Assembly (NCBI GenBank): GCA_017520675.1
Contig: JAFXFG010000011.1
Location: 469-64,468, forward strand
Origin: Alphaproteobacteria bacterium
GTDB lineage: Bacteria > Pseudomonadota > Alphaproteobacteria > Rs-D84
Length of the DNA stretch: 64,000 nucleotides
Direction: 5' to 3'
The stretch's first letter is position 1, and each line of letters opens with the position of its first letter. Below the pieces are notes generated by a model, which saw only the letters and a list, made by a program, of their open reading frames with translations, ran no database searches and had not been told where the DNA came from. This document shows, piece after piece, positions 26,248-29,943 of this stretch. A program made the translations under genes and the position numbers.

Positions 26248-27288
26248 TTATTTTGTTTTGTAATGGTCACACACGCGGGCGATTGTGCCAACAAAGCCTG
26301 CGATTCTGTCTGCAACCTGTTGTGGGGACATCTCCCACCCCACTGTACTGGTTCCGGTATATTGATAATGGTGTTTTTCATCGATATAACGCGCCATAAT
26401 TTTCCCATCAATCGTCGGGTAAACGTAATCTTTATCAAATAAAAACGCCGTCCCCAGTTCACATCCGACATCACACCCATTACATTTTCCAGGTGATGGA
26501 ACATATACATTTCCTTGTTCTGGCTTTATGTTTATGCGTTGTTCTTGGGTGAATGCTTTCTTAGGTTTTTGTAGTGCTGTTTTTTGTTTGATGAACAAGG
26601 TGTATTCCTGAATTTTAGCGGCACATTTTTCGGGGCAACCGTTTGCGAAAATATGATTTATTGTTGGGTATTCGTTGTAACATCTGTTGAACTCATCATA
26701 GGGGTCAAGTGGATGTTTTTGATACCCCATATGGCAACGCCGTTCACACCCATCACAGCGCACAGGTGACTGTAATGGATTTTGTTCTTGGTAATTTTGT
26801 ATGCTGCAACCAAAGTATTCTAATAACGGTCTATATTTTGGGTTGACTAATTTTTCTGGGGCAAATTCTTTCATCTCACCATACACTGAATCATACAGAT
26901 ATGGATTTTTATGATATTTAACCACAGATTGCACCGCATGTCGAAATACCTTGTCTTGTTCTGGTGTAAAATGCGCAACAGGAATACCAATGCGCGGTAA
27001 CATTTCGTAAAAATTGTACAAATATATTGTGCCTTTTTGATAGATATAAAAATTTCTGTGTTCCTGTCCAAAACGTTGTTTAATTCCCCAACCAAAATGA
27101 ATTTCTGTATCTGGGGTAATGGAACCACGATAATTATGTGCAACTATATTACGTGCCGTTCGATACATTTGGGCCAGGAAATAGTCTGCATTGTTTTCGC
27201 GCATTGCGGTGGGGGATAATTTTTCTATATCTTGTGCCGTTATATCTTCCCATGGGCGAACAACAGAATTATCGTTGACAGATGACAT
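26248..27288 (-). CDS. hypothetical protein with two copies of a 4-Cys domain (CxGCx3C..YPTI..C.HYKTK)
   Basis: 346 aa. The C-terminal 100 aa are homologous to the 29223 product. A middle copy reads VRCDGCERRCH...YPTIN. Confidence 0.65.
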   Translation of the reverse strand: MSSVNDNSVVRPWEDITAQDIEKLSPTAMRENNADYFLAQMYRTARNIVAHNYRGSITPDTEIHFGWGIKQRFGQEHRNFYIYQKGTIYLYNFYEMLPRIGIPVAHFTPEQDKVFRHAVQSVVKYHKNPYLYDSVYGEMKEFAPEKLVNPKYRPLLEYFGCSIQNYQEQNPLQSPVRCDGCERRCHMGYQKHPLDPYDEFNRCYNEYPTINHIFANGCPEKCAAKIQEYTLFIKQKTALQKPKKAFTQEQRINIKPEQGNVYVPSPGKCNGCDVGCELGTAFLFDKDYVYPTIDGKIMARYIDEKHHYQYTGTSTVGWEMSPQQVADRIAGFVGTIARVCDHYKTK

Positions 27289-27320
27289 TTTTGTTTGCCT
27301 TTTAATTATTGTACATAAGT

Positions 27321-27348
27321 TTTATAGCACAAAATCGCAGATTTGCAA
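27321..27348 (-). promoter_or_regulatory. putative promoter of 26248..27288
   Basis: TTGCAA - 16 nt - TATAAA on the minus strand. Same promoter and first codons (ATGTCnTCTGT) as at 29916-29943. Confidence 0.45.
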
Positions 27349-27608
27349 GCGGTATAGCGGTTTTTGTTAAAGTGCTTTTTGTATTTAATCTGATTAACGT
27401 TTATGGACAATTTTACATATACTAGACATAGAAAATTGGTGTGCCGGTGAAAGTGGTGGTTTTCCGGCTGTTTTTTATTTTTGTCTTGCATTTGTAAATT
27501 GCATTTCAGTATAGTTTAATTCAAGGAAGGAAAGGATAACTGACCTTACTCTGATTTTACAGAGAAACAATGACAAAAATGGCGACCATCTGGCCGCCGT
27601 TTTATATT

Positions 27609-27839
27609 TTACAAAAATTCCTGTTCTTGGATGTTTTCTGGTACATGTTCTAGCGCAATTTTTATTTTCTTGCGCAGATGTGTGATATAGAGTTCTGCCC
27701 CGTCCAGATTTTTATATGCGGCATCATTTTCGCCAAGGCATATAGTTTTGGCAATATGAACCACATCTTCCAGTTCTTGCAAGGTTTCCAACATGCTCAT
27801 TTCCTGGGTGGTAAATGTTCCGCCTTTGGTGTATTTCAT
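27609..27839 (-). CDS. hypothetical small protein
   Basis: 76 aa, directly downstream of and co-oriented with 27853..28968. Confidence 0.45.
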   Translation of the reverse strand: MKYTKGGTFTTQEMSMLETLQELEDVVHIAKTICLGENDAAYKNLDGAELYITHLRKKIKIALEHVPENIQEQEFL

Positions 27840-27852
27840 AATGTGTCTCCTT

Positions 27853-28968
27853 TTAGTCGATACCGAGATAAGCCTGTTGTGCTTGGGCTTTTTTTAGTTC
27901 GTCCATACTGACATACGGTCCATGTTGAACTTGTTTGCCAAGCTCTTCTGTTGCCAATCGCAGTGATTGTATTCCGCGCTCGCGTTCTATTTTGCGTTGC
28001 AATTCTTCGGGGAATTCGGGGAGCAGTTTTTTATCTTCTTCACTTAGGTTGGATAATATGTCTAATTCACGTTTTATTTTTTTGCGCATGCCAGGTGACC
28101 AGCATTTTTCTTCTGCCACCTGTGCCAAGAATGTTTGTGCATCATCAAGTTTAACACGACTGCGATGTTCTAAAAAGTCTTCGTGGTTGGTACAATTTTC
28201 TGAAGATATATCCTTGATGATATACGGTACGTCTTCATGTCCTTTTATCAAATGTTCAAAAGACTTGCCAACAACCATATCGGAATCTGGAATTTCTTTT
28301 GTAAATACATTTTCTTGAATGGTTTCGTTTCGTGCCTCTATCATAACCCAGTTGTTAGTATTTAGTTTGACGCATGGGACAACGTGTCCTGCACGACCAT
28401 CTATCAGATTGGTATATTTTGTGGTTGCTAAGAATATAATATCATTTTTTTTGATGTTATCAATTTCTGCTTTTATTTCTTCTTTTGTAAGATTCTTGCT
28501 TTTAAGTATGTTTTCAACTGTTTTGATAAATTCATGTACAAATGCACCAGCTGCATTTGAACAGGATGTAGAAATGCCATATTTCATAAATACTTCTGGG
28601 GTTGCATTCAGTTGTTCGCGAATATTGTTGTATCCAGCCGTGCTCTGGATAAATATATTATTGGGCTGTGGATTTTCTATTTCTGCTATGCTTTTACGAA
28701 CATTGTCTAAAATATCTTGTCTGAAACCATCCGATTTCTTTCCATTCTTTTCATTCTCTTCATATTCTTGTATTTTTCTGGCCACAAACAGATTGAATCT
28801 TTCTTCGGCATAATAAGGTTTTGTAGCCCGGATAGTTTTCAACTTTTGCTGTTCTTCTGGGGATAAAGCACCCCATATACTATTAAGCAAACTACTTAAT
28901 CCCTTTTTATCATCCTTTAAATTTTTTATAGTTTCATTTATTGCGGATAATTTTTCTTCGTCTGTCAT
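27853..28968 (-). CDS. hypothetical protein (possible Cys/His hydrolase; weak)
   Basis: 371 aa. AGGAA before the ATG. Coiled-coil ends. Central STSCSNAAGAF ... GRAGHVVPC could be a Cys-His pair. Confidence 0.55.
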   Translation of the reverse strand: MTDEEKLSAINETIKNLKDDKKGLSSLLNSIWGALSPEEQQKLKTIRATKPYYAEERFNLFVARKIQEYEENEKNGKKSDGFRQDILDNVRKSIAEIENPQPNNIFIQSTAGYNNIREQLNATPEVFMKYGISTSCSNAAGAFVHEFIKTVENILKSKNLTKEEIKAEIDNIKKNDIIFLATTKYTNLIDGRAGHVVPCVKLNTNNWVMIEARNETIQENVFTKEIPDSDMVVGKSFEHLIKGHEDVPYIIKDISSENCTNHEDFLEHRSRVKLDDAQTFLAQVAEEKCWSPGMRKKIKRELDILSNLSEEDKKLLPEFPEELQRKIERERGIQSLRLATEELGKQVQHGPYVSMDELKKAQAQQAYLGID

Positions 28969-29222
28969 GGTTGTTCCTGATGATTTATTTTATTGATATT
29001 TTAACAAAAATTTGGGATTTTTGCCAGTTGTATATGGATGATTCAAGGTGGGTAAAAACTTTACATAGAAAAATGGTTAAAAAATGGCGGAAATGTGAGT
29101 GGTGTAGCGATTTTTTATTATTTTTTTATTTGTATTATGACCTGGGTCCCGTGGTGTGCGGCGGGATGACATAGAAAATAAAAACACCGCCCATTTGGGG
29201 CGGTATGGTTGTTTTGTTGTTT

Positions 29223-29546
29223 CTATCGTGTCTTGTAATTGTCGCACAGGCGGGCGATTTTGCCAGCTAGTACCTTGGCTGTCAGTTCTTTTTGACGTGC
29301 TTGAGCGGTTATTCCGTTTGGTGTGACAATATCACTAGTGGTTTGAATTTGAGAATTCTCGTCAACGTAACAAGATATGATAAATCCGTTAATTGTCGGA
29401 TAAATGTAACGAGTGTAATTTACTGAAATATACTCATGACCAAATTCGCACCGTTTATCGCATCCATCACAAAATCCCCCGGGTGCAACGTATGCCTGAA
29501 CCTGTTTTGGATTTATATTTGTGCGTTTTTCTTGTGTAAATGACAT
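29223..29546 (-). CDS. small 4-Cys domain protein
   Basis: 107 aa. FCDGCDKRCEF ... YPTINGF ... ARLCDNYKTR. Confidence 0.6.
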   Translation of the reverse strand: MSFTQEKRTNINPKQVQAYVAPGGFCDGCDKRCEFGHEYISVNYTRYIYPTINGFIISCYVDENSQIQTTSDIVTPNGITAQARQKELTAKVLAGKIARLCDNYKTR

Positions 29547-29557
29547 TTTGCGTTCCT

Positions 29558-29884
29558 TTATTTTGTTTTTTGATAATGCGGACAGTGTCTTGCGGCAAGG
29601 CGTGCCTGATGTGTTGCCCGCTCTAATACAGCCTTTAATGCGCCTTGGGGTAGTGGTGTAAAAACCATACTATCATCACTATCCCAACTATAATTTTTAA
29701 GTTGTATTCCTGCATCACATTCTTTGCCGAATTCATCAATGTATTTATTTATAGCCATATCACCAATCATGGGATGTATGTAATAAGTAGCATAAATTGA
29801 ACCACTTGTGTGCACGTTTGCCCATAGTTCGCAATTCTTTTCACATCCTTCACAATAAAACTTGGCTTCTTGTACAGACGACAT
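29558..29884 (-). CDS. small 4-Cys domain protein (paralog)
   Basis: 108 aa. YCEGCEKNCEL ... HPMIGD ... ARHCPHYQKTK. Confidence 0.6.
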   Translation of the reverse strand: MSSVQEAKFYCEGCEKNCELWANVHTSGSIYATYYIHPMIGDMAINKYIDEFGKECDAGIQLKNYSWDSDDSMVFTPLPQGALKAVLERATHQARLAARHCPHYQKTK

Positions 29885-29915
29885 TTTAAGTGCCTTTTTA
29901 ATATTTTACACAAGA

Positions 29916-29943
29916 TTTATAGCATAAAAATGCATATTTGCAA
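29916..29943 (-). promoter_or_regulatory. putative promoter of the 29884..29223 operon
   Basis: TTGCAA - 16 nt - TATAAA. Duplicate of the 27321-27348 promoter. Confidence 0.45.

Follow-up and report, generated by a model that had tools for sequence, protein, structure and literature searches.

The window analysed here, a stretch of 64,000 nucleotides (nt) from an Alphaproteobacteria bacterium of the lineage Rs-D84 (GenBank assembly GCA_017520675.1, contig JAFXFG010000011.1, positions 469 to 64,468 of the forward strand), contains a small genomic islet with three genes that encode proteins of an unannotated family, called the 4-Cys family after its four invariant cysteines. We found no described counterpart for the fold of this family, for its invariant termini, or for the tripeptide tail that it shares with other proteins encoded in the same kind of gene array. 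The reading that we prefer, at a probability of about 0.4, is that the family comprises exported, metal-stapled proteins that interact with a partner cell or host and possibly leave the cell through a VirB-type type IV secretion system (T4SS).

The open reading frames (ORFs) of the three family genes are exactly those claimed in an earlier reading of the sequence letters, the original prediction:

26248-27288, minus strand: ORF of a 346-amino-acid (aa) protein
29223-29546, minus strand: ORF of the 107-aa protein, a canonical single-domain member (MSFTQEKRTNI ... CDGCDKRCE ... YPTING ... IARLCDNYKTR)
29558-29884, minus strand: ORF of the 108-aa member (MSSVQEAKFYCEGCEKNCE ... HPMIGD ... AARHCPHYQKTK)

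The start residues had also been read correctly, as MSSV in the 346- and 108-aa proteins and MSFT in the 107-aa protein. The 107- and 108-aa proteins and the C-terminal 103 residues of the 346-aa protein are clear homologues, all three with four invariant cysteines in the arrangement C-x-G-C-x3-C ... C-[DP]-x-Y-K-[TQ]-[RK]. When compared by BLASTP, the 107-aa protein aligned with residues 245-346 of the 346-aa protein, as predicted (39% identity over 106 columns, E=4e-22), and the 108-aa protein matched the 107-aa protein at E=6e-9 and the 346-aa protein at E=3e-5. The family profile recognised the 107-aa protein at E=6.5e-39 and the 108-aa protein, which belongs to a subfamily without the N-terminal FTQE extension, at E=2.9e-26. 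In alignments of both 10 and 93 sequences, the columns M1, Q5, C26, G28, C29, C33, C101 and Y104 were invariant, and S2, F3, T4, P50, D102 and K105 were at least 90% conserved.

A profile search of 5.8 billion proteins returned 115 clusters at 90% identity, all of them unnamed and lacking a Pfam domain, and HMMER run exhaustively against 1.84 billion representatives gave 199 clusters (50% identity) at E≤1e-3 and 118 at E≤1e-10. The original prediction had pointed to loss of the cysteine pattern in homologues as evidence that would speak against it; such loss was not seen, and 226 of the 237 retrieved family proteins keep the full pattern. The other 11 were mostly truncated or frameshifted fragments, and two of them had a variant motif. 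When one genome per species was scanned, all 40 genome loci came from Candidatus Enterousia or from unclassified Alphaproteobacteria metagenome-assembled genomes (MAGs) of goat, sheep, deer, buffalo and other guts. Enterousia (order Rs-D84) has genomes of ~0.75-1.0 Mb without respiration and with incomplete glycolysis, and has been proposed in a survey to be an obligate symbiont or parasite (PMC12306168).

In the loci examined, 106 ORFs contained the domain, with up to seven per locus and at least 6-9 per MAG. The proteins are small (~80-135 aa), most commonly starting with MSFTQE[KN] and ending with C-D-[HN]-Y-K-[TQ]-R, and their genes are in tandem, presumably co-transcribed arrays with intergenic gaps of roughly 10-15 nt; locus L003 and similar loci have six to nine consecutive small genes with gaps of roughly 12 nt. 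A tRNA gene (Met, Asn, Thr, Pro, Lys or His) was present within 2.5 kb of a family gene in 22 of the 40 scanned loci. For the distant members P0146, P0178 and P0208, the context look-up gave contigs of 1-2 kb only. Proteins with a PP-binding (acyl-carrier-like) domain are encoded near arrays in L003 (7833-8468), L026 (6392-7036) and L001 (7434-8789); in L003 and L026, PKPAP-type repeats and a Cys-rich C-terminus come after the domain.

The claim that the family was unrecognised held up in the searches made. None of the three proteins matched Pfam, NCBIfam, PHROGs or PADLOC, and the only signal was a sub-threshold match of the 108-aa protein to C2H2-zf_KIN17 (12.7 bits against a cut-off of 27.7). 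The same scans gave nothing informative for the other islet genes, seven other array families and ten fused relatives. The family profile had no match among PDB sequences (best E=1.2), nor did the profile of the 228-aa family or the 371-aa protein described below. An AlphaFold2 model of the 107-aa protein, made with the 93-sequence alignment, was confident (predicted local distance difference test score, pLDDT, 84.6; predicted template modelling score, pTM, 0.78), with residues 1-24 disordered, five strands in residues 34-74 and one helix at residues 81-98. In this model, C26, C29 and C33 are just ahead of the first strand and C101 is just past the helix. Foldseek searches with the model gave no match in PDB (best E=0.77, TM-score ≤0.35) or BFVD (best E=0.028, TMq 0.26). 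A characterised domain, which the original prediction had named as the finding to look for against it, was found in none of these resources, and judging from the model, the domain looks like a small Cys4 fold that is new. Neither a hydrophobic N-terminus nor a transmembrane segment was found in the family proteins (highest 12-aa hydropathy within residues 1-40: family median 0.19, compared with 2.1 in a signal-bearing neighbour), and they are predicted to be soluble and to lack a Sec signal. Their median isoelectric point (pI) is 8.57, with values above 8 in 62 of 81.

Other identities were considered and rejected. For a MucBP-like adhesin repeat, the large repeat proteins P0244 and P0249 match profile positions ~31-72 only; the P0244 repeats carry a Y-V-D-E-x-G-K-E-I hairpin motif, which is a local likeness to the family, and Pfam MucBP had no match among the window proteins. 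Precursors of ribosomally synthesised and post-translationally modified peptides do not fit a confident folded domain with both ends conserved, and there are no modification enzymes in the loci. Prophage and defence-island readings were dismissed because their defining parts are missing. Spurious ORFs were rejected on the basis of a ratio of nonsynonymous to synonymous substitution rates (dN/dS) below 1 in most pairs, hundreds of homologues, the confident fold and metatranscriptome coverage.

The 346-aa protein has three parts:

26803-27288, minus strand: N-terminal orphan domain of ~160 aa, with motifs MRENNADYF and FTPEQDxVFRHA, conserved in 10 homologues
26581-26802, minus strand: shortened middle domain, aa ~163-236, CDGCERRCH ... 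YPTINHIFANGCPEKCAAKIQEY
26251-26559, minus strand: canonical C-terminal 4-Cys domain, aa 244-346 (BLASTP E=4e-22; hhalign probability 99.6%)

The original prediction had counted four copies of the domain in the three genes. Three are canonical; the fourth, in the middle of the 346-aa protein, is a half-domain variant only. Its N-terminal half (C-x-G-C-x3-C ... Y-P-T-I-N) does match the family (BLASTP E=2e-5; hhalign probability 93% over 33 columns), covering profile positions 11-53 only, but the A-R-x-C-x-x-Y-K-T-K segment is missing and has G-C-x3-C-A-x-K-x-Q-E-Y in its place. The distal strands are absent, and the late cysteine or cysteines are supplied by the C-x3-C. Because two relatives with the same N-terminal domain, L015 (273 aa) and L019 (263 aa), carry a full-length 4-Cys domain at this place, the middle copy is most likely a shortened derivative and not a chance match.

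The homologues P0003-P0010 of the 346-aa protein end ahead of the C-terminal 4-Cys domain, and an internal KAFTQEQRINI stands where the single-domain genes have MSFTQE. From these sequences, the C-terminal domain appears to derive from fusion with a downstream single-domain gene, so that the protein as a whole would be a member of a 228-aa family fused to a 4-Cys domain. Other fusions were two 4-Cys domains joined via "ETK" and a 4-Cys domain joined to a 150-aa Cys-rich domain. The AlphaFold model of the 346-aa protein had a block-mean pLDDT of ~70-90 over residues ~20-170, with a dip at 71-77. The N-terminal domain had no PDB match by sequence or by fold, the fold result being a weak negative as the model is poor past residue 170 (pLDDT 57.7).

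The C-terminal tail of the family extends to other proteins of the arrays. A strict K-[TQ]-[RK] at the very end of the protein was found in 86 of the 97 family ORFs and 44 of the 58 other array ORFs, compared with 9 of the 611 remaining ORFs, some of which are themselves array relatives. At least seven other array families, unrelated in sequence to the 4-Cys family, bear this tail: a Cys-rich family of 149-160 aa, a 126-aa lipoprotein with a lipobox, a 139-aa family, a Cys-rich family of 76-81 aa, a 127-aa protein with a transmembrane helix, a 51-aa peptide and a family of 226-271 aa. The tail codons vary (AAG or AAA, ACA or CAA, CGA or AGA), and the tail is kept on array-terminal genes that have no downstream cistron, namely those for the 346- and 107-aa proteins in the window and for the 106-aa protein in L001. 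For these two reasons the constraint on the tail is placed at the protein level. We read the shared tail as a common recognition tag. Elsewhere in the window, two adjacent proteins (56960-57604 and 57673-57900, both plus strand) end in ...GGDCFPPIK, with similar ends in relatives from L028 and L030; this is probably a second shared C-terminal motif in the source genome.

The family genes lie in an islet of ~5.5 kb (~25973-31480) between a tRNA-Met gene and a partial copy of the 3' half of that tRNA, with the following features:

25893-25967, plus strand: tRNA-Met(CAT), left islet border (ARAGORN)
26215-26244, minus strand: intrinsic-terminator-like hairpin and T run after the 346-aa gene (read from the sequence)
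27321-27348, minus strand: promoter-like TTGCAA-16 nt-TATAAA upstream of the 346-aa gene (likewise read), within a 77-nt repeat at 27289-27365
27609-28968, minus strand: two-gene operon without the domain (ORFs of 371 aa, 27853-28968, and 76 aa, 27609-27839)
29055-29115, no strand assigned: 61-nt cassette-boundary repeat, with a second copy at 31257-31317 (98% identity)
29175-29203, minus strand: intrinsic-terminator-like hairpin (CCGCCC..GGGCGG and T run) ending the 108-107 operon (likewise read)
29916-29943, minus strand: second TTGCAA-16 nt-TATAAA copy upstream of the 108-aa gene, within the repeat copy at 29884-29960
30054-31241, plus strand: Fic/DOC-family gene (Pfam Fic E=1.1e-20, Fic_N E=6.7e-19)
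31448-31482, plus strand: partial tRNA-Met 3'-half copy, right border (direct repeat, 86% over 35 nt, with a 22-nt exact match)

There are three transcription units on the minus strand (108-107, 371-76 and 346), each ended by a terminator. The 108-aa gene comes first in its operon, with the 107-aa gene 11 nt downstream, and the 371/76-aa operon sits between this operon and the 346-aa gene; in L025, the 346-aa gene comes straight after the 108-aa gene. The duplicated TTGCAA-16-TATAAA promoter of the original prediction is real and is part of the 77-nt repeat, whose copies are 81% identical. A 25-nt promoter core was found at 96% identity upstream of the arrays in L006, L013, L041, L042 and L043, and the 61-nt boundary repeat recurs in L004, L027, L030 and L033. 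The Fic gene, also inside the islet, points away from the 108-107 operon. Convergence of a family gene on tRNA-Met next to pagL was seen in eight sequences, counting the window. No integrase, recombinase or other mobility gene was present among the islet ORFs (the three family genes, the 371-aa, 76-aa and Fic genes), and an integron cassette array was rejected because the gaps are only ~10-15 nt, corresponding to a stop codon and a Shine-Dalgarno sequence, and no integrase was found.

Two further observations concern the islet. Between the Fic start and the 108-aa promoter is a tandem 42-nt repeat (29986-30069, 90% identity), each unit of which contains an inverted repeat (AAAGTTTACTTT ... AAAGTAAAGTTT); the repeat has the look of an operator that may serve the weakly predicted C-terminal helix-turn-helix of the Fic protein. 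Beside the partial tRNA-Met copy, positions 31382-31404 (plus strand) read D-Y-Y-K-T-N-E and are 87% complementary to the 3' end of the 346-aa gene, probably as a remnant of the C-terminus of a family gene.

The islet is far more similar between species than its surroundings. When the window was compared with L027, L025 and L024, the core flanks (gyrB, ung, pagL and others) had 68-87% nt identity, with synonymous divergence (dS), where estimable, of 0.9-2.0, and in the same genome comparisons the 346-aa gene had ~98% nt identity and a dS of 0.024-0.029. The Fic segment was 96-98% identical to L027 and L004, the 107-aa segment 96.5% identical to L004, and the 108-aa segment 94-95% identical to L025, L030 and L031, where the 108-aa orthologues have 92-97% aa identity. 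Overall, the shared islet stretches (26223-27302, 28889-29961 and 29882-31358, compared with L004, L024, L025, L027, L030 and L031) had 94-98% nt identity, and dS was 0.02-0.1 for the cassettes versus 0.9-2 for the core. Because the cassettes are far more alike than the core flanks, and to differing genomes, each cassette probably had its own recent donor. This pattern indicates recent cassette-wise exchange between species.

Repeats of 60-100 nt, found again in other loci, mark the cassette boundaries. Metagenome assemblies contained alternative joints: 25972 joined to 31480, which is the islet-free form (runs X1 and X3), 27436 joined to 29198, which skips the 371/76-aa block, and 29548/29895, which skips the 108-aa gene. 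These joints, from runs X1, X3 and X14, fall at the boundary repeats in both RNA and DNA runs, and the structural variants co-occur in single gut samples. We infer that the cassettes are reshuffled by homologous recombination at the boundary repeats.

The family genes are real and under purifying selection, yet fast-evolving. Their dN/dS was 0.24-0.58 in most orthologue pairs (0.34-0.58 for the 107-aa and 0.24-0.42 for the 108-aa gene) and ~1 in two very recent pairs, compared with 0.02-0.14 for the flanking core genes.

As a mechanism, we infer a metal-stapled export substrate. The C-x-G-C-x3-C loop cysteines and the post-helix cysteine probably bind one metal ion, most likely a structural zinc in line with the zinc-binding module suggested by the original prediction, which would staple the two ends of the small beta-sheet-plus-helix domain. 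The disordered N-terminal peptide (MSFTQE) and the basic tail (Y-K-[TQ]-[RK]-COOH) would thereby come to lie side by side, and an export machine would recognise these conserved termini. The work in or on the partner cell would then fall to the variable surface of the sheet or to a payload domain fused to the protein. We tentatively propose, with considerable doubt, that K-[TQ]-[RK]-COOH is a new, very short sorting or secretion tag for an Enterousia exported set of at least eight orphan families, the 4-Cys domain among them, and that the 4-Cys fold presents both terminal peptides as a two-part export handle. The best candidate for the machine would be a chromosomal VirB-type T4SS, of which the window encodes two components:

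1864-2160, plus strand: virB3 (Pfam VirB3 E=1.9e-7)
2160-4595, plus strand: virB4 (Pfam CagE_TrbE_VirB E=3.3e-14)

The two genes are isolated among housekeeping genes (rpmJ and rmlC/rmlD-like genes, with lpxK/lpxC nearby), as they are in L044-L046, and belong to no vir operon or conjugative element. In this respect they resemble the scattered T4SS genes of Rickettsiales. Positively charged C-terminal tails form part of VirB/VirD4 translocation signals (PMC8714903), and about one third of T4SS effectors have transmembrane segments (PMC12981334). T4SS export was preferred as the route because virB3 and virB4 are present, VirB/VirD4 substrates use charged C-termini and transmembrane effectors are common.

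Several points weigh against export by this route or against export as such. Neither VirD4 nor any further vir gene turned up in the 64-kb window or in the examined loci, and no T4SS genes adjoined the arrays when these were looked for in the examined loci. The three-residue tail is far shorter than known VirB/D4 signals, which are Arg-rich and ~20 aa long or consist of a BID domain plus tail. It is also present on the lipoprotein with a lipobox and on the protein with a transmembrane helix, neither of which needs a cytoplasmic export tag. The median pI of 8.6 fits nucleic-acid binding equally well, and both the clustering of the four cysteines and the closeness of the termini are read off the topology of the model only. 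Metatranscriptome contigs span the 346-aa gene and, in part, the 107- and 108-aa genes, which suggests that the family genes are transcribed, but these contigs were assembled from related strains and may include DNA. Our literature search found no paper on Rs-D84 together with type IV secretion.

The basic pI also suits intracellular, zinc-finger-like nucleic-acid-binding proteins carried on mobile cassettes, which could be regulators, nucleoid-associated proteins or anti-restriction or anti-defence factors, in Enterousia or in a DNA recipient. The basic tail and N-terminal peptide would then serve as contacts to DNA, to RNA or to one shared partner in the cell. We consider this unlikely, although it is in keeping with the Cys4 motif, the absence of a signal peptide, the horizontally exchanged islets with an adjacent Fic gene, and the conserved promoter, whose palindromic-looking spacer suggests tight regulation. 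There was no similarity to DNA-binding, anti-defence or phage families in Pfam, PHROGs, PADLOC or NCBIfam, and the predicted fold matched no nucleic-acid-binding fold in the Foldseek search of PDB. At least 6-9 paralogues in a genome of ~850-900 genes are many for regulators, and the lipoprotein and the transmembrane protein with the same tail cannot bind cytoplasmic nucleic acid. If the four cysteines held an Fe-S cluster instead, the proteins would be small redox or electron-transfer proteins, as might be expected in an anaerobic gut organism, and the C-x2-C-x3-C spacing does indeed differ from a classical zinc knuckle pair. That spacing, however, fits neither radical-SAM proteins (C-x3-C-x2-C) nor ferredoxins (C-x2-C-x2-C-x3-C-P), and no profile matched in Pfam or PDB. 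Many fast-evolving paralogues on mobile cassettes are untypical of core redox carriers, and partner enzymes are absent nearby in the loci, all of which makes this explanation very hard to credit.

The conserved termini could also be a by-product of constraint on the DNA at cassette junctions, where a recombination site, stop codon, Shine-Dalgarno sequence and next start codon come together; they would then contain no targeting information, and the families would be functionally unrelated. The junctions are indeed stereotyped (...AAR-ACA-CGA-TAA-AGGAAACCAAA-ATG-TCA-TTT-ACA-CAG-GAA), the cassettes reshuffle and fuse at them via small indels, and the gaps of roughly 10-15 nt imply translational coupling. 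Yet the amino-acid pattern of the tail holds despite synonymous codon changes and exchanges of T for Q, the tail is kept on terminal genes before a terminator (346 and 107 aa here, 106 aa in L001), and FTQE is retained inside fusion proteins, where no translation start is required. This origin of the termini therefore seems improbable. Tandem, diverse small proteins with rapid evolution, horizontal exchange and fusion to variable domains would also be expected of immunity (antidote) proteins or toxin-immunity modules, such as the orphan immunity islands of polymorphic toxin systems. None of the 40 loci, however, had a recognisable toxin, Rhs, contact-dependent inhibition, type VI secretion or WXG component, the array families and fused domains had no PADLOC or Pfam match, and invariant termini across unrelated folds are not normal for immunity families; we give this possibility little credence.

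The reading of the 4-Cys proteins as exported interaction proteins can be set against known systems. As in the VirB/VirD4 substrates VirE2 and VirF of Agrobacterium and the Beps of Bartonella, unrelated proteins have a common basic C-terminal tag (PMC8714903), and there are tandem, horizontally mobile paralogues in an alphaproteobacterium with VirB genes. The differences are that the Enterousia tag is a tripeptide, K-[TQ]-[RK], rather than an Arg-rich stretch of ~20 aa, that the 4-Cys proteins have no BID domain like that of the Beps, and that the 4-Cys arrays lie apart from T4SS genes, with VirD4 not seen. Expanded island families are also formed by the Dot/Icm effectors of Legionella and Coxiella and by the effectors of phytoplasma mobile units. 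Like these, the 4-Cys proteins are lineage-specific orphans in many copies in a small genome, with dN/dS above that of the core, mosaic islands and interspecies exchange; unlike them, they have no eukaryote-like domains or Sec signal and consist of a compact Cys4 module with both termini invariant. The family resembles other multi-copy, island-borne orphan families of host-dependent bacteria.

At the level of the domain, four invariant cysteines including a C-x2-C knuckle, a size of ~80 aa and a likely structural role are shared with zinc ribbons and treble clefs. Instead of two knuckles, the 4-Cys domain has one knuckle, a C-x3-C and a single post-helix cysteine ~65 residues away, and solved zinc modules gave no profile (best E=1.2) or fold match (TM-score ≤0.35) to it. 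The islet itself is like tRNA-linked genomic islands in its position between tRNA-Met and the partial 3'-half copy, its absence from some co-occurring genomes, and its far greater similarity between species than that of the flanks. Unlike such islands, it has no integrase and varies cassette by cassette at 60-100-nt repeats, which looks more like homologous recombination than site-specific integration.

Outside the islet, a conserved gene pair at 47232-47732 and 47748-48320 (both plus strand) is present in seven sequences and has no Pfam match. The first gene encodes a 166-aa membrane-like protein ending in x-C-F/L and the second a 190-aa protein ending in ...NAVNCCIE, a CaaX-like C-terminus. 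Two large plus-strand ORFs, 32990-34513 (507 aa) and 13303-15489 (728 aa), had no Pfam or NCBIfam match.

Enterousia and other members of Rs-D84 occur widely in animal guts and presumably live at the expense of other cells. The 4-Cys family makes up ~1% of a small genome, which makes it an obvious candidate for the machinery of partner interaction. A Pfam entry and an experimental structure for the domain would be worthwhile. Should the tag prove to be a sorting signal, the whole set of exported proteins of these bacteria could be listed from metagenomes by a simple sequence rule.

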